A stretch of DNA of 48,901 bases, from IMG/VR virus record IMGVR_UViG_3300045988_155985. One strand, 5' to 3'. Every line of letters starts with the position of its first letter. Position 1 is the stretch's first letter. The notes below the pieces were generated by a model. That model had not been told where the DNA came from. It did not search any database and saw only the letters and a list, made by a program, of their open reading frames with translations. This stretch comes from a virus. Its lineage: Duplodnaviria; Heunggongvirae; Uroviricota; Caudoviricetes. Shown one piece after another: positions 1,855 to 48,901 of this stretch. The translations under genes were made by a program, and so were the position numbers.

Positions 1855-2478
1855 ATGACAAAACATCTTAATGTGGTTTCTTTACCACTTTCTGTGTTGA
1901 TTGGTTATGAAAAGAACGCTCGCACACACTCCGTGGAGCAGGTAGATCAGATTGTTGCCAGCATACAGGAGTACGGATGGACTAATCCGATCCTGATAGA
2001 CGAGAACAACGTTGTAATTGCTGGTCATGGTCGAATTGCTGCGGCCACTCAGTTGGGGATGGATGATGTTCCCTGCATTGTTCTGGCTGGGCTAACGGAG
2101 AATCAGAAGAAGGCATATCGTCTGGCCGACAACCGTATTCCGCTGAATGCTGGTTGGGATGAAGAGTTGTTAAGCGCGGAGCTTGCAGATCTTGCGGCCG
2201 ATGATTTTGCTCTGGACTCAATTGGTTTTACTCAGCGCGAACTGGATAACTTATTGAGTGCGGCGGTCTACGATGACACAGAGGGTATGGATATCCCATT
2301 TGAGAAGGATGAGGCCAAATCAGGCGTAAAAGTTCAGTACCTGTCATTTGGAGGTCATAAAATCCCGGCAACGGATGAGGAAGCGGATCGTTTTGACTGC
2401 GCGGTGTCTCGTTATGTTGATGATAATGGCAGCTATATCGGATTTGTATCCGCATTGCTGGCTGGGGAGGTGTGCTGA
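1855..2478 (+). CDS. ParB/Srx (ParB-like nuclease) domain protein, paralog A
   Basis: IAGHGR motif and NAGWD motif typical of ParB N-terminal domain; about 55% identical by eye to the 5145-5735 product. Confidence 0.7.
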   Translation: MTKHLNVVSLPLSVLIGYEKNARTHSVEQVDQIVASIQEYGWTNPILIDENNVVIAGHGRIAAATQLGMDDVPCIVLAGLTENQKKAYRLADNRIPLNAGWDEELLSAELADLAADDFALDSIGFTQRELDNLLSAAVYDDTEGMDIPFEKDEAKSGVKVQYLSFGGHKIPATDEEADRFDCAVSRYVDDNGSYIGFVSALLAGEVC

Positions 2479-3851
2479 TGCTTCACCTGAATTACGACAT
2501 AACGCACCTACGCGGCGCGGAATATAACCCGCGTTTTATCGGTGAGGATGATCTTGCGAGGCTGGCCGAAAGCGTCAGGGAGCTGGGGCTTGTGAAGCCA
2601 TTGATAGTGCGCGGCGATTTGCTGGTGGCGGGACACCAAAGGACGAAGGCGCTACGTAAGTTGGGAATAACGCGTGCTGCGGTGTATGTGTTGCCCTGTG
2701 AAACGACGGTATACGACGAAGTTCGGTTTAACCAACTGCATAACGGAACGGATTTTGATAGCGGAGATGAGCGTTGCAGGGTGTCCGGTCTGGAAGATAA
2801 GCATGGTTTTGTTCAGGTATCGGCAAGCCAGATCTCAGGCAATATGCGCGCGAAAATGGCATATGTTCGAAAGAACATAGCGGAACTGGTTATCAAGTAT
2901 GGTCCGTGGGGTGGTTGTGTTGCTACTCAGTCTGGTGAGGTTATTCACTGTGCTCAGTATGCATTAGCAGCGAAAATGACGCGCACACCGCTAACGGTGT
3001 TTGTGATCCCTGATGTTGAGAAGGAAAAATACCAAAGTTATCTGAATAAAACTTATGGTGTATTTGAGTATTCTCATCTGGAGAAAACAACATACATCCA
3101 GACGTATGCGCAGCTTATGCGGTTGCGTAATGGTGGCAGCCTGAAATCAAACCTGTATGAGTCGTTGATCCTCCCGATCATTGCCAAGACGCCAAGAGGA
3201 ATTGATTTTGGTTCGGGGCAGGGAGACTACGCGCGAATGCTCAGGGCAAAGGGATATAACCTGCATGATCTCGAGCTTTTCCGCCGTAAGGGCGCTGGAA
3301 ACACTCTGGATAGGACCGCAACAAACCGGATGATTGATACGCTGGTGGACGACTTAAAAACGCGAGGGCGTTACGACTACGTGATTTGCGATAGCGTTTT
3401 GAACTCGGTCGATAGTGTCGAGGCTGAATGGTCCGTTCTGACGGTTCTGAAAGGCCTGTGTAAAGCTGGTGGGTCAATATTCTTTTCTGGTCGTAGCCGT
3501 GGAGAGCTGGAAACAGTCCTGAAGCAAACACAAGCGGCGAGTTCCAAAAGCCGGCTTTATTTTATTGATCATAACGGTTTTACCGCGTTGTACCGGAAGG
3601 GGCACTGGTTTTACCAGAAGTTTCACTCTGATGATGAAGTGAAGCAGTTGTGTCGTGTACATGGTTTCAGGATTAAGCGGTCAATATTCAACTGTAAGAG
3701 CTGGTATTTGCACGTCATTAACGATGATTCCCTTAGTTGGGCGAGTCTGGAGAAAGCTGTTCGTTTTGAGTTTGAGTTGCCGTTGCCTGGTGGTTCAACA
3801 ATCGGACGATCTGATGATGTGCTGGCGGCTTTCCGGCCGTTGATTAAGTAG
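2478..3851 (+). CDS. fusion protein: ParB/Srx-like N-terminal domain plus class I SAM-dependent methyltransferase-like C-terminal domain
   Basis: N-terminal VAGHQRTKAL (ParB GxxR-like); C-terminal GIDFGSGQG (motif I-like), acidic post-I, YDYVICDSVL (motif II-like); ATG 2478 overlaps upstream stop (TGATG); no DPPY/NPPY motif seen. Confidence 0.6.
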   Translation: MLHLNYDITHLRGAEYNPRFIGEDDLARLAESVRELGLVKPLIVRGDLLVAGHQRTKALRKLGITRAAVYVLPCETTVYDEVRFNQLHNGTDFDSGDERCRVSGLEDKHGFVQVSASQISGNMRAKMAYVRKNIAELVIKYGPWGGCVATQSGEVIHCAQYALAAKMTRTPLTVFVIPDVEKEKYQSYLNKTYGVFEYSHLEKTTYIQTYAQLMRLRNGGSLKSNLYESLILPIIAKTPRGIDFGSGQGDYARMLRAKGYNLHDLELFRRKGAGNTLDRTATNRMIDTLVDDLKTRGRYDYVICDSVLNSVDSVEAEWSVLTVLKGLCKAGGSIFFSGRSRGELETVLKQTQAASSKSRLYFIDHNGFTALYRKGHWFYQKFHSDDEVKQLCRVHGFRIKRSIFNCKSWYLHVINDDSLSWASLEKAVRFEFELPLPGGSTIGRSDDVLAAFRPLIK

Positions 3852-5144: not shown

Positions 5145-5735
5145 ATGGCTCTAAAAATCGAATATTTACCAGTCGGTAAGCTGCTCAGATATGCCAAAAA
5201 TTCACGGACTCATTCAGATGAGCAAGTTGAACAGTTGGTGAACAGTATCCGTGAGTTCGGTTTCACTAATCCTGTGCTGATCGATGAAAAGAATGAACTG
5301 ATTGCGGGGCATGGTCGGCTTGCAGCAGCCGAAATTCTGGAAATGGATAAAGTTCCGGCGATTCGGTTGAGTAACCTTTCTGAAAAACAGAAGAAGGCTT
5401 ACAGGATTGCAGATAACAAGCTGGCCTTAAATGCTGGCTGGGATATGCAGCTTCTGGCCGAAGAAGTCAAAGAGTTAATGGATGATGATTTTGATATTGA
5501 TCTGCTTGGGTTTAATGATGCAGAGCTTGACGAAATGTTAAGCGATGAACAGCCGCAGGAAGAAGACGATAATTCTTCCCCTGTTGTTCAAATTAAGTAC
5601 CTGGCTATTGATAAAGAACGTATTCCCGCGACGGATATGGAAATTGCATTGTTGCTGGATGTTTATCGTCAGTACCACGACGCGCATGAAACGCATGAGG
5701 GATTTGTTCAGTATCTTGCTAATGGTTGCAAGTAA
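5145..5735 (+). CDS. ParB/Srx (ParB-like nuclease) domain protein, paralog B
   Basis: IAGHGR and NAGWD motifs; immediately upstream of TerS. Confidence 0.7.
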   Translation: MALKIEYLPVGKLLRYAKNSRTHSDEQVEQLVNSIREFGFTNPVLIDEKNELIAGHGRLAAAEILEMDKVPAIRLSNLSEKQKKAYRIADNKLALNAGWDMQLLAEEVKELMDDDFDIDLLGFNDAELDEMLSDEQPQEEDDNSSPVVQIKYLAIDKERIPATDMEIALLLDVYRQYHDAHETHEGFVQYLANGCK

Positions 5736-6286
5736 TGGCCATCGTCAGTAAGTCAGAGTTTGCCCGCCGGAAAGGTATTTCTCCGGCAATGGTTACGAAG
5801 CTCTGTCGTTCCGGTCGCATTCCAGTGCTGAAAAGCGGCAAGCTGGATTTTGATAAAGCAAGTGCGGCTTATGAAGCGAGCCGACAGGTTGGTCGTGAGG
5901 TATCTGCTGAAAACGGAAAAAGAGGGCATGGGATATCTTCGGAACAACCAGAGTTACCCGCTGATGATGCCGGATTAGCTGGTGGTACTTCCGGTGTTGC
6001 GGTGCAATTCAACAAGGCTAAGACCGCAGAAAAAATTTATCAGGCAAAGCTGAAACGCCTTGAATTTGAAGAAAAGGAAGGCTCTCTCATCGCTAAAGAT
6101 GCGGTCAGGGATGATGCATTTCTGGCAGCTAATGAATTGCGTAGCCGCTTATTTAGTATTGCTCCAAGAGCAGCTCCCCGTTGTGAAGGCAAAACAGCCA
6201 GGGAGATCGAACGCATTATTGAAGACGAGATTAATTTTGCGCTTCAGGCGCTCCAGGAATCCCGATTTATTAAGCAGGAAGAATAA
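5735..6286 (+). CDS. terminase small subunit, Nu1-like HTH type
   Basis: N-terminal HTH-like segment SKSEFARRKGISPAMVTKLCRSGRIPV; position before large terminase; ATG 5735 overlaps upstream stop (track start 5726 is TTG). Confidence 0.6.
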   Translation: MAIVSKSEFARRKGISPAMVTKLCRSGRIPVLKSGKLDFDKASAAYEASRQVGREVSAENGKRGHGISSEQPELPADDAGLAGGTSGVAVQFNKAKTAEKIYQAKLKRLEFEEKEGSLIAKDAVRDDAFLAANELRSRLFSIAPRAAPRCEGKTAREIERIIEDEINFALQALQESRFIKQEE

Positions 6287-6291
6287 ACCTC

Positions 6292-8148
6292 ATGGGCGAA
6301 ACAGTATGGAGCACCGCTTTTTTCCGTGCGCTTCGCCCTAAATCACGGCTAACTGTTTCCGAATGGGCTGATAAGTATCGTCATGTAGCGCCGGGAACGT
6401 CTCCAGAGCCAGGGCCGTGGCGTACAAGCCGAGTGCCATATTTGCGTGAACCAATGGATGTTATTGGTGACGCTGATACAGAAACAGTAGTGATGCAATG
6501 TAGCTCGCAAATTGGTAAATCCGAATTACAGCTAAATGTTATGGGTTACTTTGCAGATCAGGAGCCATCTCCTCAGTTGATGATTTATCCAACGGTAGAG
6601 GCGGCTGAGGCTTTTTCAAAAGAGCGTATTGATCCGACGTTCAAATATTCCCCTGGTTTGAAACACAAGCTGCATGAAGGGAAAGAGGGGCGCGGTGCAG
6701 CCAAAAAGTCCAGCACGACTATACGTATGAAGCATTACGCTGGTGGATATATAGCACTTGTTGGTGCTAATTCCCCAGCAGGTCTTGCATCCAGGCCAAT
6801 TCGAATACTGTTAGCTGATGAGATTGATCGTTACGGTGTGACGCAGGAGGGCGACCCACTAAAACTAGGTATTCAGCGTACTACCAACTTTCATAATCGT
6901 AAGAAAGTTTTTGTTTCTACTCCTGTTTTGGAGGAAACGAGCAAAATCCACAAGTGGTTTAAGCTCTCCGATCAGCGTTACTACCATGTTCCTTGCCCAT
7001 GTTGTGGCACCATGCAGGTGATGAAATGGTCGCAAGTCAGATGGGATAAGAGCGATTCAGGTGAGGCGTTACCGGAAACGGCCAGATATGAGTGCTGTGA
7101 GTGCGGCGGGATTATGCGCGGATCTGGTAAACCAGACGTTGATTGGTTGGCGAAGGGGGTATGGATAGCTGAACATACTGGAGTTAAAGGTATTGTTGGT
7201 TTTCATATTAACAGTCTTTACTCCCCGTGGGTTGCATTGTCAGAGCTGGTTGAAGAATTTACGGAAGCAACCAGAAACCGCGATAAAAATGGATTAATGG
7301 AGTTTATTAACCTTAAGCTGGGTGAGCCATGGAAAGAGGATGCTAAAGACGATATCGATCCTGAATACTTGTTGCAACGCAGAATAAGGTTTGAAGAGTT
7401 TTTACCAGATGATGTTTTATTGTTAAGTGCTGGTGTTGACGTACAGGACACGTATTTAGTTTGTGAATTGGTCGGTTGGGGAAAAGGTAAGGAGTCATGG
7501 GGGATAGAATATAAAATATTCCCAGGTGATCCCGCACAAGATGTTGTCTGGAAACAACTTGATGAATACTTACTCCGTAGCTGGTCATTCCGTGACGGTC
7601 GAAAATTACAGATTTCTTCCGTTTGTATTGACTCTGGTGGGCATTTTACGACAGAGGTATATCGCTTTACTAAGCCGAGAGAATCAAGGCGAATATACTC
7701 TATCAGGGGGCGTGGTGGGGTAGGTTTACCATTTATAGGAAAGCCAAATAATAATAACCGTGTGGGTGCTATGTTGTTTAATTTGGGGGTTGATGATGGT
7801 AAAGGGACCATCATGGCAAGAATTAAACTACATGATCCTGGTCCTGGTTATATGCATTTCCCATTAGATTCTGACAGAGGATATGATACCGAATACTTTA
7901 AAGGATTATTATCAGAGAAAAAAATATTTGAATATAAAAATGGGCAGACAAAAGAAAAGTGGGTGAAAGTCTACGAGCGTAACGAACCTCTTGATTGCCG
8001 TAACTATGCAACTGCCGCGATGGAAATTCTGAACCCTAATTTTAACTGGCTTGCCGAACAGGAAATGCGAGGTAATGTGTATGTGCAGAACTCGTCAGGT
8101 ATACGTAGAAGACGCCGTAGAGTTATAAGTAAAGGCGTAACCATATAG
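6292..8148 (+). CDS. terminase large subunit, lambda gpA-like
   Basis: 618 aa; recalled similarity to gpA (VSEWAD near N-terminus, CPCCG zinc-finger-like segment); gene order TerS-TerL-W-portal. Confidence 0.85.
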   Translation: MGETVWSTAFFRALRPKSRLTVSEWADKYRHVAPGTSPEPGPWRTSRVPYLREPMDVIGDADTETVVMQCSSQIGKSELQLNVMGYFADQEPSPQLMIYPTVEAAEAFSKERIDPTFKYSPGLKHKLHEGKEGRGAAKKSSTTIRMKHYAGGYIALVGANSPAGLASRPIRILLADEIDRYGVTQEGDPLKLGIQRTTNFHNRKKVFVSTPVLEETSKIHKWFKLSDQRYYHVPCPCCGTMQVMKWSQVRWDKSDSGEALPETARYECCECGGIMRGSGKPDVDWLAKGVWIAEHTGVKGIVGFHINSLYSPWVALSELVEEFTEATRNRDKNGLMEFINLKLGEPWKEDAKDDIDPEYLLQRRIRFEEFLPDDVLLLSAGVDVQDTYLVCELVGWGKGKESWGIEYKIFPGDPAQDVVWKQLDEYLLRSWSFRDGRKLQISSVCIDSGGHFTTEVYRFTKPRESRRIYSIRGRGGVGLPFIGKPNNNNRVGAMLFNLGVDDGKGTIMARIKLHDPGPGYMHFPLDSDRGYDTEYFKGLLSEKKIFEYKNGQTKEKWVKVYERNEPLDCRNYATAAMEILNPNFNWLAEQEMRGNVYVQNSSGIRRRRRRVISKGVTI

Positions 8149-23564: not shown

Positions 23565-25799
23565 GTGAGTAAATTATTATTTACGATGACTGACGCCGGG
23601 CGTCAGGAGCTGGTTAATGCCAACAAAACAGGAACAAATAAAGTTGAGATTGTTTCTGTTGGTTTAGGTAGTAGATATTATGTCACGTCAACTTCACAAA
23701 CAAATATAACAAACGAAATAAAACGACTTACCACAATAGGTGGCAAAGTTGTTTCCCCTGATACAATTCATGTAACAGCGAAGGATGATAGTAAAGATGA
23801 GTATGTTGTCCATACAATAGGATTGTATACGAATAAGGGTACGTTGTTTGCTGTATACTCACAAGAACAAGCAATAATAAATAAAGCATCATCTACTATC
23901 GCTTTAATATCAAGTGATATAGCAATTAAAACTCTTGATACTAAAAATATTACATTTGGTGATATTGAGTTTATTAATCCTCCCGCGACCGAAACTGTTG
24001 TTGGGGTGGCAAGATTTGCTAATGAACAAGAAATTGATGCAGGTACAGATGATTCCCTTGCTGTTTCAGCAAAGCGGCTTAAGCAAGCCATTGTGAAACA
24101 TGAGCAATCACGTAATCATCCTGATGCAACTTTAACCTCAAAAGGCTTTGTTCAACTTAGCAGCGCCACCAATAGCACGTCTGAAACGCTTGCTGCGACG
24201 CCTAAGGCTGTTAAGGCAGCATATGACCTTGCTAACGCTAAATACACCGCACAGGACGCTACCACAGCGCGAAAAGGGATTGTTCAGCTCAGTAGTGCCA
24301 CCAACAGCACGTCTGAAACGCTAGCAGCAACACCAAAGGCTGTTAAGGCAGCGTATGATCTTGCGGTCGGAAAGGCTCCGTCCAATCACACGCATTCGTG
24401 GGAGCAGATAACAAATGTGCCTGTAGCTTCACTGACTGTAAGGGGAATAACTCAGCTCAGTAGTGCCACTAACAGCACGTCTGAAACGCTGGCTGCGACA
24501 CCAAAAGCTGTTAAGGCGGTAATGGATGAAACGAACAAGAAAGCGCCCTTAAACAGTCCTGCGCTGACCGGAACACCAACAACACCAACTGCGCCAAAAG
24601 GTACTAACAATACTCAGATCGCAAGCACGGCTTATGTTATGGCTGCGATCGCTGCCCTCGTGGACTCGTCGCCTGACGCACTGAATACGCTGAACGAGCT
24701 GGCTGCGGCGTTGGGCAACGACCCGAATTTTGCGACCACCATGACTAACGCGCTTGCGGGTAAGCAACCGAAAGATGCCACCCTGACGGCGCTGGCCGGG
24801 CTTGCTACTGCGGCAGACAGGTTTCCGTATTTTACGGGGAATGATGTTGCCAGTCTGGCAACCCTGACAAAAGTTGGGCGGGATATTCTTGCGAAATCGA
24901 CCGTTGCCGCCGTTATCGAATACCTCGGTTTGCAGGAAACGGTAAACAGGGCTGGTAACGCCGTGCAAAAAAATGGCGATACCTTGTCCGGTGGGCTTAC
25001 TTTTGAAAATGACTCAATCCTTGCTTGGATTCGAAATACTGACTGGGCGAAGATTGGATTTAAAAATGATGCCGATGGTGACACTGATTCATACATGTGG
25101 TTTGAAACAGGCGACAACGGCAATGAATATTTCAAATGGAGAAGCAAACAAAGCACCACAACAAAAGACCTGATGACGCTGAAATGGGATGCACTAAATA
25201 TTCTTGTTAATGCCGTCATTAATGGCAGCCTTGGAGTTGGTACGACGAATGCGTTAGGTGGTAGCTCTATTGTTCTTGGTGATAATGATACCGGATTTAA
25301 ACAGAATGGAGACGGTATTCTTGATGTTTACGCTAATAGTCAGCGAGTATTCCGCTTTCAGAATGGAGTTGCTATTGCTTTTAAAAACATTCAGGCAGGT
25401 GATAGTAAAAAATTCTCGCTATCCAGCTCCAACACCTCCACAAAGAATGTAACGTTTAATTTATGGGGTGCTTCAACCCGTCCAGTAGTTGCAGAGTTAG
25501 GCGATGAGGCAGGATGGCATTTCTATAGCCAGCGAAATACAGATAACTCGGTAATATTTTCTGTTAACGGTCAGATACAGCCCAGCAACTGGGGGAATTT
25601 TGATTCACGCTATGTAAAAGATGTTCGCCTGGGTACGCGAGTTGTTCAATTGATGGCGCGTGGTGGTCGTTATGAAAAAGCCGGACACGCAATTACCGGA
25701 TTAAGAATCATTGGTGAAGTAGATGGCGATGATGAAGCCATCTTCAGACCAATACAAAAATACATCAATGGCACATGGTATAACGTCGCACAGGTGTAA
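23565..25799 (+). CDS. tail fibre protein: constant N-terminal part plus variable C-terminal part in the currently expressed orientation
   Basis: 744 aa; GTG start after AAGGAA; internal fibre repeats; crossover site at 24923-24946 lies inside the gene. Confidence 0.8.
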   Translation: MSKLLFTMTDAGRQELVNANKTGTNKVEIVSVGLGSRYYVTSTSQTNITNEIKRLTTIGGKVVSPDTIHVTAKDDSKDEYVVHTIGLYTNKGTLFAVYSQEQAIINKASSTIALISSDIAIKTLDTKNITFGDIEFINPPATETVVGVARFANEQEIDAGTDDSLAVSAKRLKQAIVKHEQSRNHPDATLTSKGFVQLSSATNSTSETLAATPKAVKAAYDLANAKYTAQDATTARKGIVQLSSATNSTSETLAATPKAVKAAYDLAVGKAPSNHTHSWEQITNVPVASLTVRGITQLSSATNSTSETLAATPKAVKAVMDETNKKAPLNSPALTGTPTTPTAPKGTNNTQIASTAYVMAAIAALVDSSPDALNTLNELAAALGNDPNFATTMTNALAGKQPKDATLTALAGLATAADRFPYFTGNDVASLATLTKVGRDILAKSTVAAVIEYLGLQETVNRAGNAVQKNGDTLSGGLTFENDSILAWIRNTDWAKIGFKNDADGDTDSYMWFETGDNGNEYFKWRSKQSTTTKDLMTLKWDALNILVNAVINGSLGVGTTNALGGSSIVLGDNDTGFKQNGDGILDVYANSQRVFRFQNGVAIAFKNIQAGDSKKFSLSSSNTSTKNVTFNLWGASTRPVVAELGDEAGWHFYSQRNTDNSVIFSVNGQIQPSNWGNFDSRYVKDVRLGTRVVQLMARGGRYEKAGHAITGLRIIGEVDGDDEAIFRPIQKYINGTWYNVAQV
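24145..24530 (+). repeat. three imperfect direct repeats of about 78 bp inside the tail fibre gene
   Basis: Repeated peptide QLSSATNSTSETLAATPKAVKA; copies at about 24151, 24283 and 24451. Confidence 0.6.
24923..24946. repeat. left inverted repeat / recombination site of the invertible segment
   Basis: CCTCGGTTTGCAGGAAACGGTAAA; exact reverse complement at 27888-27911; core resembles gix/cix sites as recalled. Confidence 0.7.
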
Positions 25800-26893: not shown

Positions 26894-27904
26894 TTAAACG
26901 CTCGCTACATTATACCAGGTGCCATTTATATACTTTTGAACGGGTCTGTAATAAACGCCCGCTATATTATCGGCAGAATTGGACCCTGTATCCTGAACAT
27001 TAATACCAGTCAATACATGACCTGACGGGCACTGGAAATTCCATGTTTGCCAGTTGTTCACGCCATAATATTGCTGTGAACCAAGTCGAACATCTTTCAC
27101 ATAACGGGAATCAAAGTTACCGTAATCTGAGGGATTAACACGCCCTGTAATATTTATGGTTTTATTACTTTGAATACTGCCGGAGACAAAGCGCATAACA
27201 TGGACGTTATTAGCATAAACATCCAGATACCCGTCGCCATTTTGTTTAAATCCCGTGTCATTATCACCCAAAACAATCGAGTTACCGCCAAGAGCACTGG
27301 ATGTACCGATGCCCAGTGCACCATTCAATTGACCTCCAGATAATGACAACGCCCCAACATCAGCAGCAGTCGGTTTAATGTGCGAACTGTAAATTACATA
27401 TACAGTTCCATCTGTCAGACCTGTTGGTTTATTCGCTGTATAAGTTGGTGATGTATGAATCGTTACGCTGGCGTTACTGGTATAATCCCACTGAATATTA
27501 ACACCTGTGGCGTAATTACCTATTTCAACATAAACATCATAGGTATCACCTGATGTATTCACCCATGCAAAATTAGTAAATCCAACCGATGTCCGTCGCC
27601 ATAACGCACCAGTAAGACCTTTTGGATTTCCATTTCCCGCACGAAGAACAAGTTCAGATATACCAGCCTGCATAGGGGAGTTAACATTATATCCAGCACC
27701 ACCAATCAGGCTTATGTAAACCACGGAACTGGCTTGTGGCATTGTTACAGTTGCCAGTTTGAACCATCCAGCACCACCACTAAAAGACATGGTTGTTGAA
27801 TTTGTTGTGCCGATATTACGCAGGAATAGTTTTTTATCGGGAATATCTGCGCCGTTCTGGTTTTTCTGTAATGCGCCAGAAGCCTGATTTACCGTTTCCT
27901 GCAA
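26894..27904 (-). CDS. alternative tail fibre C-terminal variable region (promoterless until inversion)
   Basis: Track start is TTG; encodes LQETVNQ which continues the fibre frame across the crossover site; shares [17 protein letters not shown] and C-terminal [11 protein letters not shown] with the plus-strand fibre. Confidence 0.7.
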
Positions 27905-32280: not shown

Positions 32281-32393
32281 TATTTATATAATTATAGATT
32301 TATATAAAAAGTGCTTTACAGGTGGGAAAAAATTTCCTAAGGTTATACCCGAAACCGAGCGATACCCGCCCTGGTTAAACCGGAGATAACCCG
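32281..32393 (+). promoter_or_regulatory. promoter-operator-leader cassette, copy B
   Basis: AT-rich repeat 32281-32310; -35-like TTTACA 32315-32320; 17-bp spacer with inverted repeat GGAAA-AAA-TTTCC; -10-like TAAGGT 32338-32343; conserved 50-nt leader. Confidence 0.5.
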
Positions 32394-32774
32394 ATGAGCA
32401 TGATTAAAATCCGCAAAAACGCTTTCCTTAAAATTCAAACTATCCTGGCTGGTTCTGTTGGCGTGATTTGCCGTTCTTCCTCAAGCCGCATCGATGACGG
32501 CTACGATGATGAGTATCGTGTGTCCTCATGCGATGAGGCTTTAACCTGGCTGAAGGAGAATCAGGAACGTGCCCAGGTATATCTGGAAACAGAGAACGGC
32601 AATCAGATGCTGCGTATTAGCGGTCGTTATGGATTTGAAACTACATTCATGGCCTATTTTAATCAGGCTTACTTTGACAAGGAGTTGGCTTGGTACACTG
32701 ATCGCATGAGCAAAAGCGAGCCAGCCCCGATTACACCGCCGAACAATAAACCATTTTTATTCCTCGTTAAGTAA
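32394..32774 (+). CDS. hypothetical protein, 126 aa, first gene of cassette B
   Basis: ORF track; ATG within conserved leader context. Confidence 0.5.
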   Translation: MSMIKIRKNAFLKIQTILAGSVGVICRSSSSRIDDGYDDEYRVSSCDEALTWLKENQERAQVYLETENGNQMLRISGRYGFETTFMAYFNQAYFDKELAWYTDRMSKSEPAPITPPNNKPFLFLVK

Positions 32775-36627: not shown

Positions 36628-36664
36628 CCCCTCTTATATAAATCTATAAAACTATAATTATATA

Positions 36665-37318
36665 TTACGCGGCAGTAGTCAGAGCCTCAAGCTGGTTGAT
36701 AATCCCCTGAATAACGTCGTCTGCCTTTTTGCGTGGCGCAACGTATGAGCACTCAATGAGGCTTAAGCCCTTATCCTGAGCTTTGCTCAGAGCTGGCTTG
36801 TGGGGAATGTACTTATCGACAACAAAGTATGGCGTATTAGCCAGGTACTCTTGGGCTTCAATATAGTCAGCTTCGTTTTCAGCCGCGCCGGAAAACACCA
36901 TGCAAATTTTCTTGATTGGTACACCCTTTTTAACGATGCCGTGAGCTGTGTTAACGGTGGTTTCCAGGTCATCGGTAGAGAATCTGGTTGGTAAAATAAC
37001 CATATCCAGAAATTCAGAGAGCTTCGGTACTGATTCAGATGCGTAGGCACCGCCATCGACGATAACCAGGTCGTATACTTCTGATTCGATGATTTTCTGG
37101 ACTTGTGATGGTGTGCCGCACGGCTGCGCCGCGATTGCTGGTTCGATATTGTTGGCCATTCTGCGTTGTACCCAACGCGTTACCGTTCCGTTAAGCACAT
37201 CCATATCGATCAGGCATACATTCCAGCCGGCCTTTGCATAAGCAACTGCTAAAGCACGGGCAATTGTTGATTTGGTTACGCCGCCTTTTCCGTTGAAAAT
37301 ACCTACAGAGATAGTCAT
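36665..37318 (-). CDS. parA: partition ATPase, small ParA (ParF-like, type Ib)
   Basis: Deviant Walker A GKGGVTKST; about 217 aa; ATG 37318 (track start 37333). Confidence 0.85.
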   Translation of the reverse strand: MTISVGIFNGKGGVTKSTIARALAVAYAKAGWNVCLIDMDVLNGTVTRWVQRRMANNIEPAIAAQPCGTPSQVQKIIESEVYDLVIVDGGAYASESVPKLSEFLDMVILPTRFSTDDLETTVNTAHGIVKKGVPIKKICMVFSGAAENEADYIEAQEYLANTPYFVVDKYIPHKPALSKAQDKGLSLIECSYVAPRKKADDVIQGIINQLEALTTAA

Positions 37319-37341
37319 TTGTCGAGACTCCATGTGTTTGG

Positions 37342-37446
37342 TTATATAATTCTATAAATCTATATTTATAGAACGAGGTAAGCATAACCAACTTTTTGGC
37401 GGATGAAAAGCGTTTTATATAATTATATAAAACTATAATCATATAA
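37342..37446. repeat. AT-rich TATAATTATA-type repeat cluster upstream of parA; candidate centromere/operator
   Basis: Two blocks (37342-37373, 37412-37446); a related block at 36632-36667 between parA and parG. Confidence 0.4.
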
Positions 37447-37935: not shown

Positions 37936-38592
37936 TCATAACCAGTTGACAACACTAACTACGCGGCCCAGAACTTTATAACGCTTAAATTCCTCGTTAT
38001 TCAGATGCTTAGTGTTCATTTCAGCATCCCTTTCGGTTGACAGCATAACAGCATTGTCACCCGGTATGACTCTACAGTGCCTCAAAACAACCAGGCCATT
38101 TCTGTCTTCAAGGGCATAGATCCCCTCATGAATCTCTGTATCGTCTGTATTAATCAGGACTTGGGAGCCAGGGGATATTGTTGGTGACATTAACTCATCG
38201 TTGCTCTGGAGAACTGACAGAGACGATGAGTTGATGTTCTTGCTTCGTAGAATCTCCTGTTCTATCGCCAGCACTGGCTTTTCTCCGGCGTGCGATGCTA
38301 TGTCATTTTTTATAGCTACAAGCCCAGGAATAACAGGAGCGTTAGTATTCTGGGGTGGGAACGGGTTATCTGTTAAGCACGCGATATAAGGCGCTGATGC
38401 TTTCAGGGCGTGCGCGATTTTCTTGATGGCAGGTATAGATGGTTGTCTTAATCCGGCCTCATAGTTCTGCAAGGTGCTTAAGCCTATTCCAGTGACTTGC
38501 TGGAGATCTCCGGCAGTCATGCCGGATTGTTTCCGTAGAGTCTGAATGCGCAGACCTATTTCTTTCTTGATGTTCTCGTCGTTGCTTTTCAT
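37936..38592 (-). CDS. prophage repressor, cI/LexA-like (N-terminal HTH, C-terminal S24 peptidase-like)
   Basis: HTH GMTAGDLQQVTGIGLSTLQNYE; C-terminal segment with Ser and Lys candidates; divergent from cro-like gene. Confidence 0.8.
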   Translation of the reverse strand: MKSNDENIKKEIGLRIQTLRKQSGMTAGDLQQVTGIGLSTLQNYEAGLRQPSIPAIKKIAHALKASAPYIACLTDNPFPPQNTNAPVIPGLVAIKNDIASHAGEKPVLAIEQEILRSKNINSSSLSVLQSNDELMSPTISPGSQVLINTDDTEIHEGIYALEDRNGLVVLRHCRVIPGDNAVMLSTERDAEMNTKHLNNEEFKRYKVLGRVVSVVNWL

Positions 38593-38765: not shown

Positions 38766-39260
38766 ATGACCTTTCAGGAGTGGGTTGACGAGAATGGAGG
38801 CCAAATTGGTGTTGCCAGAAAGTTTGGCTTTACGTCATCACTGATTGGTGCCTGGTATCGCTTCGAGAGATTCCCTCGTGCGGATAACCTGACGCTGCTG
38901 GTGGCGTGTTCGGAAGGCCGGATTAACGTCCAGCAATGGGCGGCAGATTTTGCCGAACGTCAGCGCCAGCGTAGCGATGGCACATCGGTTCGGCAGAACA
39001 AGATCAAAGGGAATCTCCCTGTTAACTGCTTATCAAGGCTGAAAGCGGTTTTCTCTGAGCTGGGGATGCCTGCGGAGCGTTGCAATCTACGCGGTCCGCG
39101 ATTCATTGCTCGCTGGAAACACTCACACGTAACCGTTTCAGAGGTTCGTGATGCGATTGCCGTGCTGGAGCTTAAGAATAAAGATTCCAGCGATATCGAG
39201 CTGATTCATAAGGAGATTAGCAACGCCCGGCGTTCAGCACTTGGGAGGCTTGAGGAATGA
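38766..39260 (+). CDS. Cro-like early regulator with C-terminal extension
   Basis: Divergent from repressor across the operator cluster; N-terminal HTH-like segment. Confidence 0.5.
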   Translation: MTFQEWVDENGGQIGVARKFGFTSSLIGAWYRFERFPRADNLTLLVACSEGRINVQQWAADFAERQRQRSDGTSVRQNKIKGNLPVNCLSRLKAVFSELGMPAERCNLRGPRFIARWKHSHVTVSEVRDAIAVLELKNKDSSDIELIHKEISNARRSALGRLEE

Positions 39261-39772
39261 TGATTCTGGCCTTCTTTGGTGATAATCACCAGATTCAATC
39301 GCAGGTGGTGCACTACCTTGATCAAACGATTAAAGGATTTGTTATCGATCATATTGATAACGATAGTAAACGTCTATCTGTAGAGCAGAAAATTGGACGT
39401 GTGCAGCGACTGGTTGCCAGCCGTAACAGACGTGACACCGTAACAGTCGTCACGGGGATAACGGAGGTCATGGAGTACCAGATGTTGCTGCATCGTGGAG
39501 CTGTTTTCTGCGTTCTTCCTGGCATTCTGCCAGCAATTCTTGCTCGTGGTTTTGTCCCTATTGATGAGTCGTTTTTATATGTAACCCCAAGCCGTTCTCT
39601 TCTGGATACGGAGGCGAAGCGTCGCATTTATATACTGCCGGACGAGGCATTTTCTGAATGTTACCGCCGTGAAATGAGGTTGGGTAAACGAGAAGTGTCT
39701 GTTGTTCGTGATGGCAGGTTTTTAAGAAGCCGCACGGTGAAAAGCACCAGAAATGACGGGGGCCATCAATGA
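39257..39772 (+). CDS. hypothetical protein, 171 aa
   Basis: ORF track; start overlaps upstream stop. Confidence 0.4.
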   Translation: MMILAFFGDNHQIQSQVVHYLDQTIKGFVIDHIDNDSKRLSVEQKIGRVQRLVASRNRRDTVTVVTGITEVMEYQMLLHRGAVFCVLPGILPAILARGFVPIDESFLYVTPSRSLLDTEAKRRIYILPDEAFSECYRREMRLGKREVSVVRDGRFLRSRTVKSTRNDGGHQ

Positions 39773-40002
39773 GTAGTTATGTTCGCGGTGCTGCGATGCA
39801 TTGCCAGAATCCCCAATTCTGGCGCTTTCTGACCAGTAAAACAGGGAAGAACGTTTCAAACAGTTCTGAGGCCTCTGTGATTCTGCGTGAGTTTTGCGGG
39901 ATCTCATCCCGTAAAGAGCTGGCAAAGAACTACGCGGCCAGAAGCATGTATGTCCAGTTAATCAACGAGTTCAACCTCTTTATCAATGGTAAGGGGCGCT
40001 GA
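39769..40002 (+). CDS. hypothetical protein, 77 aa
   Basis: ORF track; ATGA overlap. Confidence 0.4.
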   Translation: MSSYVRGAAMHCQNPQFWRFLTSKTGKNVSNSSEASVILREFCGISSRKELAKNYAARSMYVQLINEFNLFINGKGR

Positions 40003-40406
40003 TGAACGGACGTACACCAACGAAGAAAGAGAAACTTTATATACAAGCGGTGCTCACTCACGTGGGTTGCATAGCTTGCATTATTGATGGCCGTGAAATT
40101 GATAATCCAGAGCTGTGGACGGAGCTACATCACGATCCTGATTACGGCAGCGTTGATGAGAATTGCCACTTCCATAGCTTTGGGTTGTGCGCACCACATC
40201 ATCGCGGTGTTGTGCCTGGTGGTGGGCGCGTGCCTCCGCATATTGCCGTTCGTCACCCTCCCCTGAGTAATTGTGCTCGCTTTGTTGAGCGTTATGGCAC
40301 CGATGAATTTTTGTGTGCGCAGACGTGGGAGCTGTTGCCGCAGTCAGTTAAAGACGAAATTGGGTTTGATCTTAGTCTTGGTGAAGTACCAGGGGATACC
40401 AAATGA
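40002..40406 (+). CDS. HNH-type nuclease, P1 Ref-like
   Basis: GRTPTKKEK...CIAC...HH...C..HH pattern matches recalled P1 Ref. Confidence 0.55.
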   Translation: MNGRTPTKKEKLYIQAVLTHVGCIACIIDGREIDNPELWTELHHDPDYGSVDENCHFHSFGLCAPHHRGVVPGGGRVPPHIAVRHPPLSNCARFVERYGTDEFLCAQTWELLPQSVKDEIGFDLSLGEVPGDTK

Positions 40407-40735
40407 GATATACCGGCTTTCGCAAACCAGCGACCAGGAAAAGCAAATACGGCAATAAAAAAACTGTTGTCGATGATATCTCTTTTGATAGCAAAAAAGA
40501 GGCTGATTACTACTGCGAACTGAAGCTACTGAGAAAAGCTGGCCGCGTTGTGACGTTTCTTATGCAGGTGCCTTTTCATCTGCCAGGTGGTGTCGTTTAT
40601 AAACTTGATTTCATGGTGTTTTATGACGATGGGACGATTGATTGTGTCGACACTAAAGGTGTGCGAACAGACGTCTACATCATGAAGAAAAAGCAGGTAG
40701 AGGCGCTTTATCCCGTCACGATACGGGAGATCTGA
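40403..40735 (+). CDS. DUF1064-family phage protein
   Basis: KYGNKKTVVDDISFDSKKEADYYCELKLLRKAG matches recalled DUF1064 signature. Confidence 0.55.
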   Translation: MRYTGFRKPATRKSKYGNKKTVVDDISFDSKKEADYYCELKLLRKAGRVVTFLMQVPFHLPGGVVYKLDFMVFYDDGTIDCVDTKGVRTDVYIMKKKQVEALYPVTIREI

Positions 40736-40738
40736 ACA

Positions 40739-41116
40739 GTGAGACGCGATCTGGATAGCTTGTTTGAGCTATGGGCGCTGTGGGTGCGCAATGGCTGCAA
40801 CGCCCGTAGCGGTTTCGCGTCGATGTTAGAAATGATGATGGTTACGCGCTGCCAGTTTACCGGAGGGGGCGGCGCACCAAATGACTCACTGGAAACCAGT
40901 ATCGAGGGAGCGGTGACGGCCCTCACGGTAGTTGATGAGACTGCGGCGCTGGTTGTCCGAATTGAATACGGGGCGTGGGAGATTCGGGGCCTCGACATAA
41001 ATGCACCGCATATTGATAAAGCCCACGCCCTTTCTCTTAGTCTCAGACAGTATCGCCGGAAGCTGGCAAAAGCCAGGGCGTATGTTGTCGACTATTTGAA
41101 AAAGCGAAGAGAGTAA
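40739..41116 (+). CDS. putative late-gene antiterminator, Q-like
   Basis: 125 aa; pattern LWALWVRNG...GFASM...LRQYRRKLAKARAYV resembles Q-family; sits before a promoter cassette. Confidence 0.4.
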   Translation: MRRDLDSLFELWALWVRNGCNARSGFASMLEMMMVTRCQFTGGGGAPNDSLETSIEGAVTALTVVDETAALVVRIEYGAWEIRGLDINAPHIDKAHALSLSLRQYRRKLAKARAYVVDYLKKRRE

Positions 41117-41166
41117 AAGTGTCATTTTGAGCTGTTTTGATGGTGTGTAGACATCGGTAACATCGA

Positions 41167-41285
41167 AAATCTATAAATATATAATTATAGATTTATATAA
41201 AAAGTGCTTTACAGGTGGGAAAAAATTTCCTAAGGTTATACCCGAAACCGAGCGATACCCGCCCTGGTTAAACCGGAGAAATCTG
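41167..41285 (+). promoter_or_regulatory. promoter-operator-leader cassette, copy C
   Basis: AT-rich repeat 41167-41203; TTTACA 41208-41213; spacer with GGAAA-AAA-TTTCC; TAAGGT 41231-41236; conserved leader. Confidence 0.5.
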
Positions 41286-42353
41286 ATGAATAAACAAGAA
41301 ATTATTTCTGACTGGATCAACAACCCTAACAGCCTGTTAAGCACTGATACTGGCTACCTATTACGCCATGTTAATGGTCGTATGGTCAAAAGCGATGAGC
41401 ACGAAACCTTTTTCTTTGTTGAAGACGATGGGCGCATCTATGAGGATGGTTACTCTTATGAAGCCCAAACTGGTTGTATCCCTGCGGAGCTGGTGGACGT
41501 AACAGAAGATCTGCGCAAAGCATGGCTTGAACAGCAGCAGCGCGGAGATGATTACGTAAACACCTATCAGGAACGCCAGAACGCGCGTCTTGCCCGATAT
41601 ATTGCTCGTGCAGAAAAAGCCAGAAAAGAAGGTGCGGTAGCGCATAAGCGAGCGCATGACCTGTTGGATGTGATCCCGTTAGGCCAGCCGATTTTAGTTG
41701 ACCATTATAGCGCGAAAGGCCATCGCCGCCGTTTGTCTAAAGCTGATGCGTTATTAAGAAAAGCGTTTGTTGAATGCGAAAGTAAAGCATCACACTACGA
41801 GAGCAAAGCCGCAGGTGTTGGTCGTAATGGAATTTCGTCTGATGATCCTGATGCGCTATTTAAGTTGCTTCGTAAGCTGCAAGGCTGCATGAAGTCACAC
41901 GTCAAAATGAAGGCCGCAAATAAGGCCATTCGCAAATACAAAAAAGACCAATTACAGCAGCTTTCTGCATTAATCGATCTCAGGTTTACAGAAAGCGAAG
42001 CCAAAGAGTTACTGGCCGGAGATTTCTGTGGGCGCATCGGATTCCCTTCATACGCACTGAGCAACAATAACGCCGAAATCAAACGACTACAGAGCCGTAT
42101 TAAGGAGCTTGAATCGGTCAAGTCTGTAACAGGAGCACAGCGCGAAGAATACGACGGCTTTTCTATGGAGATAGATCCAGAGGATAACCGCATCCTGTTT
42201 TATTTCCCTGGCAAACCAGAGGCAAACATTCGTTCGCTGCTTAAATCACGCGCCTTTAAGTGGAGTCCAACCCGTAATGCATGGGTTCGCAAGATTACTC
42301 CAAACGCCCTGGCTGATGCCCGATATCTAAAAGAATCGCTATTGAAAGCCTGA
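41286..42353 (+). CDS. hypothetical protein, 355 aa, first gene of cassette C
   Basis: ORF track; basic helical C-terminal half; no catalytic motif recognised. Confidence 0.5.
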   Translation: MNKQEIISDWINNPNSLLSTDTGYLLRHVNGRMVKSDEHETFFFVEDDGRIYEDGYSYEAQTGCIPAELVDVTEDLRKAWLEQQQRGDDYVNTYQERQNARLARYIARAEKARKEGAVAHKRAHDLLDVIPLGQPILVDHYSAKGHRRRLSKADALLRKAFVECESKASHYESKAAGVGRNGISSDDPDALFKLLRKLQGCMKSHVKMKAANKAIRKYKKDQLQQLSALIDLRFTESEAKELLAGDFCGRIGFPSYALSNNNAEIKRLQSRIKELESVKSVTGAQREEYDGFSMEIDPEDNRILFYFPGKPEANIRSLLKSRAFKWSPTRNAWVRKITPNALADARYLKESLLKA

Positions 42354-47520: not shown

Positions 47521-47644
47521 TACCGCCTGTGATTGGGTAAAGCCCATCTACCTGACTGATCACGACATCGATGTTATGGACCGCCAGACAAAGAAAGATA
47601 TTCTGGCTCATAACAGGGCATGGGAAATCAACTGCCCAAAGTAA
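47435..47644 (+). CDS. o-spanin (Rz1-like lipoprotein), overlapping the i-spanin in another frame
   Basis: Lipobox-like LIASC with Cys at residue 18; starts inside 47242-47520. Confidence 0.6.
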   Translation: MYSRVLTIWLMTMLIASCGSRGSVPVVVDTACDWVKPIYLTDHDIDVMDRQTKKDILAHNRAWEINCPK

Positions 47645-47813
47645 TATATATTTCTGTAATTATATAAATATATAGTTACAACATTCTATGCGCTTTTCTC
47701 ATGAGCGCACGCATCAACCATGTTTGTCTGATATGCCGCCGCGCCCAAAAATCCTGAATTTATTGGCTGGGATTTTCGTGCGCGGCGCCACACCAGACAA
47801 ACAGATCAAATAT

Positions 47814-48197: not shown

Positions 48198-48785
48198 ATG
48201 GAGGCAATTGCATTGTTTAATCTGATTTATGCAGATCCCCCCTGGGAATACAAAGACAAGTGTAAGGATGGGAATCGTGGCGCTGGTTTTAAGTATCCAA
48301 CGATGAAAGCTGAGGATATTGCTCGTATTCCTGTCTGGCAGCTTGCTAATCCTGAATCGTGTTTGTTGGCCATGTGGTGGGTTCCGACTCAGCCAGAAGA
48401 AGCGTTGCTGGTGGTGAAAGCATGGGGATTCAGGCTGATGACCATGAAGGGCTTCACATGGAACAAATGTGGTAGCCGACAGCCAGACAAGCTGGTGATG
48501 GGGATGGGGCATATGACTCGTGCAAACAGTGAAGATTGCTTGTTTGCGGTAAAAGGCAAACTGCCGACCCGCCTTGATGCGGGGATTATTCAGTCGTTTA
48601 CATCGCCTCGTCTGGAGCATTCTCGGAAGCCTGATGTGGTCCGTGACAAGCTGGTAAAGCTGTTAGGCGATGTTCCTCGTATTGAGCTGTTTGCTCGCGG
48701 TGATTTACCTGATGGCTGGCATGGCTGGGGCAACCAGTGCAACGGAGGTATCCAGTTGCATGATGCTCTCTGGCAAATGTCATAG
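48198..48785 (+). CDS. DNA N6-adenine methyltransferase, MT-A70 family
   Basis: LIYADPPWEY (DPPW motif); 195 aa. Confidence 0.75.
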   Translation: MEAIALFNLIYADPPWEYKDKCKDGNRGAGFKYPTMKAEDIARIPVWQLANPESCLLAMWWVPTQPEEALLVVKAWGFRLMTMKGFTWNKCGSRQPDKLVMGMGHMTRANSEDCLFAVKGKLPTRLDAGIIQSFTSPRLEHSRKPDVVRDKLVKLLGDVPRIELFARGDLPDGWHGWGNQCNGGIQLHDALWQMS

Positions 48786-48901
48786 AATTATATAATTATA
48801 GATTTATATAAAAAATGCTTTACAGGTGGGAAAAAATTTCCTAAGGTTATACCCGAAACCGAGCGATACCCGCCCTGGTTAAACCGGAGATAACCCGATG
48901 A
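48786..48901 (+). promoter_or_regulatory. promoter-operator-leader cassette, copy D (same physical copy as window start on the circle)
   Basis: AT-rich repeat 48786-48815; TTTACA 48819-48824; spacer with GGAAA-AAA-TTTCC; TAAGGT 48842-48847; leader continues as 1-55. Confidence 0.5.

Follow-up and report, generated by a model that had tools for sequence, protein, structure and literature searches.

The stretch of DNA analysed here in full (the window; 48,901 nt, IMG/VR record IMGVR_UViG_3300045988_155985) is a ~49-kb temperate E. coli/Yersinia phage-plasmid, two adjacent plus-strand genes of which encode small nucleases: a short, 134-aa Ref-family protein with a His-Me (HNH) domain (40002-40406) and a 110-aa DUF1064 protein, a minimal PD-(D/E)XK nuclease (40403-40735). 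Both genes are ordinary members of known families, matching existing public annotation, and they are the fourth and fifth of the six genes in an early right operon that is divergent from the repressor gene. Their pairing is recurrent yet facultative, a frequent and dispensable neighbourhood. On balance, we lean towards a reading in which two separate small nucleases act on recombination or replication intermediates and end the early operon.

The preliminary description, made from the sequence alone, had likened the 134-aa protein to the RecA-dependent HNH nuclease Ref of phage P1, and Pfam, the family profile and the fold search all place it there; the refuting outcome named in that description, an HMM search that leaves the protein outside the Ref/HNH family, thus did not occur. 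The protein matches PF16786 (RecA_dep_nuc) at 44.9 bits (gathering score 26.9, E 1.4e-11) over profile positions 1-102 of 103; its best PHROGs match is phrog_1588, which has no function, with a weaker match to phrog_2321 ('Ref-like RecA filament endonuclease'). P1 Ref itself is recovered by a PDB sequence search (3PLW, E 0.0027, at Ref residues 76-143), by BLASTP against the P1 protein of NC_005856 (36% identity over 76 residues, from Ref residue 75) and by the subfamily profile (E 5e-13). An AlphaFold2 model built with 36 homologues in the alignment has a mean predicted local distance difference test score (pLDDT) of 87 and a predicted template modelling (TM) score of 0.82, and when it is compared with the PDB by Foldseek, 3PLW is the sole match at E<=0.001 (E 3.1e-5, target-normalised TM score 0.73), the alignment spanning 112 columns over the 110-residue crystal chain.

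The functional residues of Ref can be followed through an L-INS-i alignment of 56 sequences (P1 Ref and 55 dereplicated members of the family), in which the key positions of the window protein are conserved as follows:

C23 (P1 Ref C96), structural zinc, identical in 56 of 56
C26 (P1 Ref C99), structural zinc, identical in 56 of 56
H43 (P1 Ref H112), conserved histidine, identical in 55 of 56
H44 (P1 Ref H113), conserved histidine, identical in 56 of 56
H56 (P1 Ref H123), conserved histidine, identical in 54 of 56
C63 (P1 Ref C130), structural zinc, identical in 56 of 56
H66 (P1 Ref H133), structural zinc, identical in 55 of 56
H67 (P1 Ref H134), conserved histidine, identical in 56 of 56
H85 (P1 Ref H153), active-site metal ligand, identical in 51 of 56

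The three cysteines and H66 can be read, from the motif, as a CxxC...CxxH zinc knuckle. Ref H153 has been described as an active-site metal ligand (PMC3973344); its equivalence to H85 comes from the 56-sequence alignment only, as pairwise, 11-sequence and profile alignments left H153 unresolved. With the zinc-knuckle and active-site residues of Ref all conserved, the predicted catalytic apparatus of the window protein is complete.

The window protein departs from P1 Ref at its N-terminus. Its first residues, MNGRTPT, correspond to the start of the ordered domain of Ref (KGRTPT), and it is without the 76-residue basic, disordered N-terminus of Ref, corresponding to Ref residues 75-186 only; its isoelectric point (pI) is 5.6, hence acidic, versus 10.0 for P1 Ref. 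This basic N-terminal segment of ~76 residues is a feature of P1 and phiW39 Ref; P1 Ref owes to it both DNA binding and efficient cleavage, and N-truncated P1 Ref keeps RecA-dependent nuclease activity while needing 10-100x more protein (PMC4330346). Most of the family has the short, tail-less form, P1 Ref being an atypical long one: the surveyed family loci have mostly 0-8 residues before the domain, and a profile search of 1.84 billion representative proteins, which returned 632 clusters at E<=0.001, found more than 40 residues ahead of the domain in ~9 of the best 150 of these clusters. The family has been subdivided before, PF16786 having been divided into two groups by Jablonska et al. 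(PMC5714182). Cleavage restricted to RecA-filament-bound DNA was shown for P1 and phiW39 Ref only (PMC4330346, PMC3973344), and the 134-aa protein would be RecA-dependent by analogy with P1 Ref.

The DUF1064 assignment of the preliminary description likewise holds, with a PF06356 score well above the gathering value (68.5 bits versus 24.7, E 8.4e-19) and a catalytic motif that is intact. Across 45 homologues, D69, D83 and K85 are invariant and E33 is conserved in at least 90%, and E33/D69/D83-x-K85 constitutes the E...D...DxK signature of PD-(D/E)XK nucleases. In the AlphaFold2 model (pLDDT 88), an alpha helix, three beta strands, a further helix and a further strand follow one another, and the N-terminal tail (residues 1-20) is basic and of low confidence. 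When searched with Foldseek, this model retrieves only generic PD-(D/E)XK domains (Bax1, R2 retrotransposon endonuclease, TnsA, VRR_NUC and Cas4-like), with probabilities of 0.9-1.0 but E-values of at least 2.8e-3; no fold match reaches E<=0.001, and no specific subfamily stands out. The PDB sequence search with the DUF1064 protein yielded noise only (carbapenem synthase, E 0.14). Homologues of both genes extend down to ~33% identity with invariant catalytic residues, which marks them as conserved coding genes, far beyond chance.

In PHROGs, the DUF1064 protein matches phrog_190, 'Holliday junction resolvase' (E 7e-38), a label that we treat as an unverified hypothesis. The characterised SPP1 resolvase, G44P, is RusA-like and not a DUF1064 protein (PMC3485210), so that we found no experimental anchor for the phrog_190 label. 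In the literature searched, DUF1064 appears only in fold predictions (PMC1189080) and under position-based labels such as 'RusA-like' in staphylococcal phages (PMC12323379).

The preliminary description had further treated the two genes as a pair, and here the survey of relatives points to a looser association. Ref-like loci were taken from GTDB genomes and IMG/VR, and DUF1064 loci from IMG/VR; open reading frames (ORFs) were called, searched with profiles of both families and dereplicated at 90% identity. Among 57 Ref-like lineages, DUF1064 lies directly downstream in 9 (gap -68 to +98 nt), within 5 kb without being adjacent in 6 and nowhere within that distance in 42. The closest Ref-like subfamily (n = 12) divides into 7 lineages with an adjacent DUF1064 gene, 0 with a non-adjacent one within 5 kb and 5 with none. 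From the opposite side, 6 of 61 DUF1064 lineages have a Ref-like gene directly upstream, 0 have one within 5 kb at a non-adjacent place and 55 have none, in a sample that comprises the lineages nearest the query and is thus biased towards its relatives. A fixed pair is therefore not what the loci display: DUF1064 is found in 7 of the 12 closest lineages and is adjacent in 9 of 57 overall, and most DUF1064 genes are without a Ref neighbour.

In the five closest-subfamily lineages that are without DUF1064, the operon is otherwise unchanged (164, ~150 and ~77 aa, Ref, ~130 aa), DUF1064 being a clean presence/absence between Ref and the ~130-aa gene. Pfam scans of the ORF directly upstream of DUF1064 identified RecA_dep_nuc as the commonest family (6 of 58, mostly from one phage lineage), with DUF968, another prophage His-Me nuclease family, at 2 of 58. 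Two Pfam-confirmed loci (L037 and L144) have the adjacent order Ref then DUF1064 with Ref-like proteins distant from that of the window, the L037 protein also having a weak DUF968 match. By rough reckoning, independent adjacent lineages number ~3 of the ~8 that have both genes within 5 kb; by the same reckoning, this adjacency exceeds random placement, is also expected from the clustering of recombination genes and is far from obligate. Some relatives without DUF1064 have RusA or VRR-NUC within 5 kb downstream, an unsystematic pattern that is compatible with non-orthologous replacement of the junction nuclease.

The two plus-strand ORFs lie where the preliminary description had placed them, overlapping by a 4-nt ATGA, and belong to the following arrangement:

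37936-38592, minus strand, cI-like repressor gene
38766-39772, plus strand, the first two genes of the operon, encoding a 164-aa protein with a weak Cro/repressor-like N-terminus and a 171-aa protein with no assigned function
39769-40002, plus strand, 77-aa protein with a match to phrog_5358, its stop overlapping the Ref-like start by 1 nt (TGATG)
40002-40406, plus strand, short Ref-family His-Me (HNH) nuclease, 134 aa, pI 5.6 (PF16786, 3PLW sequence and fold match)
40403-40406, plus strand, 4-nt stop/start overlap (ATGA) of the Ref-like and DUF1064 genes, seen in the sequence
40403-40735, plus strand, DUF1064 minimal PD-(D/E)XK nuclease, 110 aa, pI 9.4 (PF06356, phrog_190)
40739-41116, plus strand, 125-aa protein of phrog_5285, the last operon gene, with a weak PA0613-family match
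41157-41185, plus strand, sigma-70-like promoter (10 of 12 matches), within or next to the 114-nt repeat copy 41177-41290

The first two genes are divergent from the cI-like repressor gene, a synteny that is kept in relatives. Throughout 38766-41116 the genes run head to tail, with stops and starts that overlap or almost abut; no convincing internal promoter or terminator was found within this interval, the next promoter-like site being the one at 41157. The two nuclease genes are therefore co-transcribed as parts of a single operon, and their ATGA overlap, as read from the sequence, implies translational coupling. Shine-Dalgarno-like hexamers stand 5-6 nt before both starts (AAGGGG at 39991-39996 for the Ref-like gene, AGGGGA at 40391-40396 for DUF1064).

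The 77-aa protein is a steadier partner of Ref than DUF1064 is. Its gene sits directly upstream of the Ref-like gene, with an overlap of 1-4 nt, in almost all of the close subfamily (it was not found in lineage L132), and it carries the motif C..P.FW.FL...LR..CGI.SR.EL..N..A. A phrog_5358-type protein is also found upstream in L031 and in the distant L054, there as the C-terminal domain of longer proteins, which have no Pfam match. The 125-aa protein gene at the other end is always next after Ref or DUF1064, following Ref directly in the relatives without DUF1064, and immediately precedes one copy of the 114-nt repeat. Its product has no Pfam match and only a weak NCBIfam PA0613-family match (21 bits versus a cut-off of 100); by position, it may be a Q-like late-gene regulator.

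If the two proteins act as separate nucleases on recombination or replication intermediates, the Ref-like enzyme would nick RecA-bound DNA (filaments or D-loops), like P1 Ref (PMC3973344, PMC4330346) and like the HNH nickase Gp16 of PhiNM1, which RecA stimulates (PMC12817073), and recombinogenic breaks could result from this nicking in the lytic cycle or under SOS. Lacking a DNA-binding tail of its own, the enzyme probably relies on the RecA filament or on a partner for targeting. DUF1064, in turn, would cleave branched DNA (D-loops, forks or junctions), which may serve recombination-dependent replication or the resolution of plasmid or concatemer multimers. The adjacency of the two genes would then reflect a shared recombination module, not an obligate complex. 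An alternative outcome of both activities may be SOS-linked lytic amplification, as for P1 Ref (PMC4713147). Several points weigh against this preferred reading. RecA dependence is extrapolated from a homologue that shares the stated 36% identity over 76 residues, and what P1 Ref has been shown to do physiologically is to amplify the lytic cycle and to damage the host genome under SOS, as opposed to phage recombination per se (PMC4713147). A characterised resolvase is absent from the 50 DUF1064 fold matches listed, and the literature searched holds no biochemical data for short Ref-family or DUF1064 proteins.

A tighter arrangement, in which the two proteins form an obligate two-nuclease machine, with basic DUF1064 recruiting the acidic Ref core and the HNH and PD-(D/E)XK sites each cutting one strand of a D-loop, seems to us rather unlikely. 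It would fit the ATGA coupling and the complementary charge of the two proteins (pI 5.6 versus 9.4, with a basic, low-confidence DUF1064 N-terminus), together with the missing Ref tail; where the genes are near each other, moreover, they are mostly adjacent and in one order, a pattern that two distant lineages share, and ~3 adjacent versus ~5 non-adjacent independent lineages correspond to p ~0.005 under random placement among ~20 slots (a rough estimate). However, an obligate machine is hard to reconcile with the 5 of 12 closest Ref-like lineages that are without DUF1064 in an otherwise unchanged operon, or with the 42 of 57 Ref-like lineages without DUF1064 within 5 kb and the 55 of 61 DUF1064 lineages without a Ref-like gene, and the tail-less form is the norm in the family whether or not DUF1064 is present. 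Marginally less probable still is a broader proposal that tail-less Ref proteins need a neighbour for DNA targeting, either DUF1064 or the coupled 77-aa protein, and that in the window element the HNH and PD-(D/E)XK sites jointly convert a RecA D-loop to a double-strand break or to a resolved product; if true, the two-step cutting that is done by P1 Ref alone would here be split between two polypeptides.

That one or both enzymes are host-takeover or competitor-directed nucleases, degrading host DNA or that of a co-resident phage or plasmid in lytic growth, is also on the unlikely side, albeit a possibility of some weight. P1 Ref increases the degradation of the host genome and, when expressed by itself, is toxic (PMC4713147), replication of the host is suppressed by PhiNM1 Gp16 (PMC12817073), and Feder and Bujnicki speculated on DUF1064 degrading host DNA (PMC1189080). 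Yet the position of the genes is the nin-like recombination slot of an early operon, and they are not linked to any gene for immunity, an inhibitor or DNA modification. A plasmid prophage that carries a non-specific nuclease would have to control it tightly, and no such control is evident; nor do the two proteins or five of their neighbours match PADLOC-DB v2 at E<=0.01. The suggestion in the preliminary description that the pair targets competing DNA derives from P1 Ref and finds no counterpart among the known defence-system proteins of PADLOC. Degeneration of one or both genes into inactive relics is very improbable: nothing specific speaks for it beyond the dispensability of DUF1064 in relatives, whereas the catalytic and zinc ligands are invariant and intact copies of both ORFs exist in 74 E. 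coli genomes, and also in metagenomic relatives of as little as ~33-50% identity. Small phage HNH proteins often serve as terminase-associated packaging nucleases, and many cos phages have one (mentioned in PMC4330346), but for the window protein such a role can be practically dismissed, as it is effectively refuted by position and family: the terminase genes lie ~14.5 kb off around the circle in the late region, the Ref-like gene is in the early operon beside the repressor, and the Ref family is without homology to terminase-associated HNH proteins (PMC4330346).

Comparison with known systems sharpens what is familiar and what differs. With P1 Ref, the window protein shares the Pfam family, the globular His-Me (HNH) domain, the CxxC...CxxH knuckle and the HH/H/H histidines, including the presumed H153 equivalent, and both are encoded on plasmid prophages (P1 and the ParA-bearing window element). 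Unlike P1 Ref, it is tail-less, acidic and limited in similarity to 36% identity over 76 residues, with a subfamily-specific DPDYGS insertion and a ~20-aa C-terminal extension; furthermore, P1 ref is a separate, C1-repressed gene, whereas that of the window is gene 4 of the early right operon.

The layout also resembles the ybcO-rusA-Q arrangement of the lambdoid prophages DLP12/82. Both arrangements have a small, zinc-containing His-Me nuclease, then a candidate junction nuclease, a last early gene and a new promoter, with DUF1064 in the position of RusA; at two of the 58 loci noted above, it is DUF968 that precedes DUF1064. They differ in that the window His-Me family is PF16786, not DUF1364/DUF968, that the second nuclease is of PD-(D/E)XK type, not RusA, and that the 125-aa downstream protein, without a Pfam match, is not demonstrably Q. 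YbcO itself belongs to DUF1364/DUF968 in His-Me finger group 7, and RusA and Q are its typical neighbours (Jablonska et al., PMC5714182).

PhiNM1 Gp16, reported in 2026 from a Staphylococcus phage, is an early-expressed HNH nickase with CxxC/CxxH motifs that is stimulated by RecA and needed for phage replication (PMC12817073), and the same replication/recombination module of staphylococcal phietaviruses also contains a DUF1064 gene (PMC12323379). The window protein resembles Gp16 by motif, being likewise an HNH protein with CxxC and CxxH as its zinc motifs; it is unfused, whereas Gp16 fuses a NinB-like N-terminal domain to its HNH domain. The idea that the 77-aa protein is itself a NinB-like domain, such that it and the Ref-like protein would amount to a split Gp16, was rejected (hhalign probability 0.1). 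Finally, the window DUF1064 protein is a clear member of the DUF1064/phiH ORF25 family described by Feder and Bujnicki in 2005, with the AD...DxK-type motif and the restriction to phages and prophages (PMC1189080); that study reports 'no strongly conserved neighbours', while here RecA_dep_nuc tops the upstream families at 6 of 58.

The window is identified as a phage-plasmid because it combines a ParA-like gene, a repressor, ParB-like domains and phage genes with no integrase among the ORFs scanned, and because copies exist as plasmids. Its further landmarks are:

36665-37333, minus strand, ParA-like gene
1855-2478, 2472-3851 and 5145-5735, plus strand, ParB-like nuclease domains in three proteins, two of which are encoded immediately upstream of the terminase
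5726-8148, terminase genes, late region

An anti-repressor and a lysis cassette are also encoded, as are portal and tail proteins; the phage ORFs scanned include no further gene recognisable as a recombinase or resolvase, and neither a replication initiator nor a helicase of conventional type could be recognised in the early region. The best-matching ~48-49-kb plasmids of E. coli, E. albertii and E. fergusonii have 99.2-99.6% DNA identity to the window region, and the element is carried by 74 of 5426 complete E. coli genomes, where 222 of 225 matching places are plasmid-borne. The same element has been isolated as Yersinia pestis phages: vB_YpM_39, 41 and 44 are 99.5-99.7% identical to the window region, and their records are circular, ~49 kb long and name all coding sequences 'hypothetical'; vB_YpM_39 is unmentioned in the literature searched.

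Several other features of the element were recorded. Downstream of the operon, a 355-aa protein (41286-42353, plus strand) contains DUF3560 (residues 94-216) and a C-terminal half that matches phrog_19458, 'primase'. A 114-nt element occurs three times at 92-100% identity (32284-32397, 41177-41290 and 48788-48901, and in part at 1-55), each copy having an AT-rich, promoter-like part followed by a conserved ~55-nt leader that ends in GGAG...ATG. Each copy is located just before a plus-strand gene (a 126-aa protein at 32394, the DUF3560 protein at 41286 and, for the third, across the window junction), and the element looks like a single promoter/leader that serves three operons and on which a dedicated activator or antiterminator may act. 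Nucleotides 1-55 of the window are identical to its last 55 (48847-48901), which indicates either a circular genome cut inside the third 114-nt copy or a short terminal redundancy. An AT-rich 31-nt motif (TTATATAAATCTATAAAACTATAATTATATA) is present seven times (36634-36664, 37342-37372, 37415-37445, 41161-41199, 47644-47674 and 48780-48810); its copies cluster round the parA-like gene and at the 114-nt repeats and could be operator or centromere-like sites. Inverted repeats (25802-26149/26546-26893, 348 nt, 71%; 24919-24973/27861-27915, 55 nt, 78%) flank the tail-fibre region, with tail-fibre-like ORFs in opposite orientations (including 26894-27904, minus strand), which suggests an invertible or duplicated host-range cassette. 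Within a 744-aa ORF (23565-25799), three 93-nt direct repeats (24140-24532, 71-100% identity) presumably encode a repeated tail-fibre domain.

On near-identical plasmid copies, the RefSeq Prokaryotic Genome Annotation Pipeline names the two products 'Ref family recombination enhancement nuclease' and 'DUF1064 domain-containing protein'. As neither protein has a match to a hidden Markov model in NCBIfam release 20, these specific names must come from another type of rule. With the same family names already in RefSeq, and with a layout that is the familiar 'nin-like' end of a temperate-phage early operon, the finding carries little weight as it stands. Three modest points can be added. The mechanism of P1 Ref was built on a DNA-binding tail that most Ref-family proteins lack, which raises the question of how the short form finds its substrate, and for DUF1064, widespread in phages, the recurrent place after small His-Me nucleases, in the slot of RusA, provides a concrete hypothesis. 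Since P1 Ref sensitises lysogens to ciprofloxacin, a Ref homologue on a common E. coli phage-plasmid might likewise affect ciprofloxacin sensitivity.

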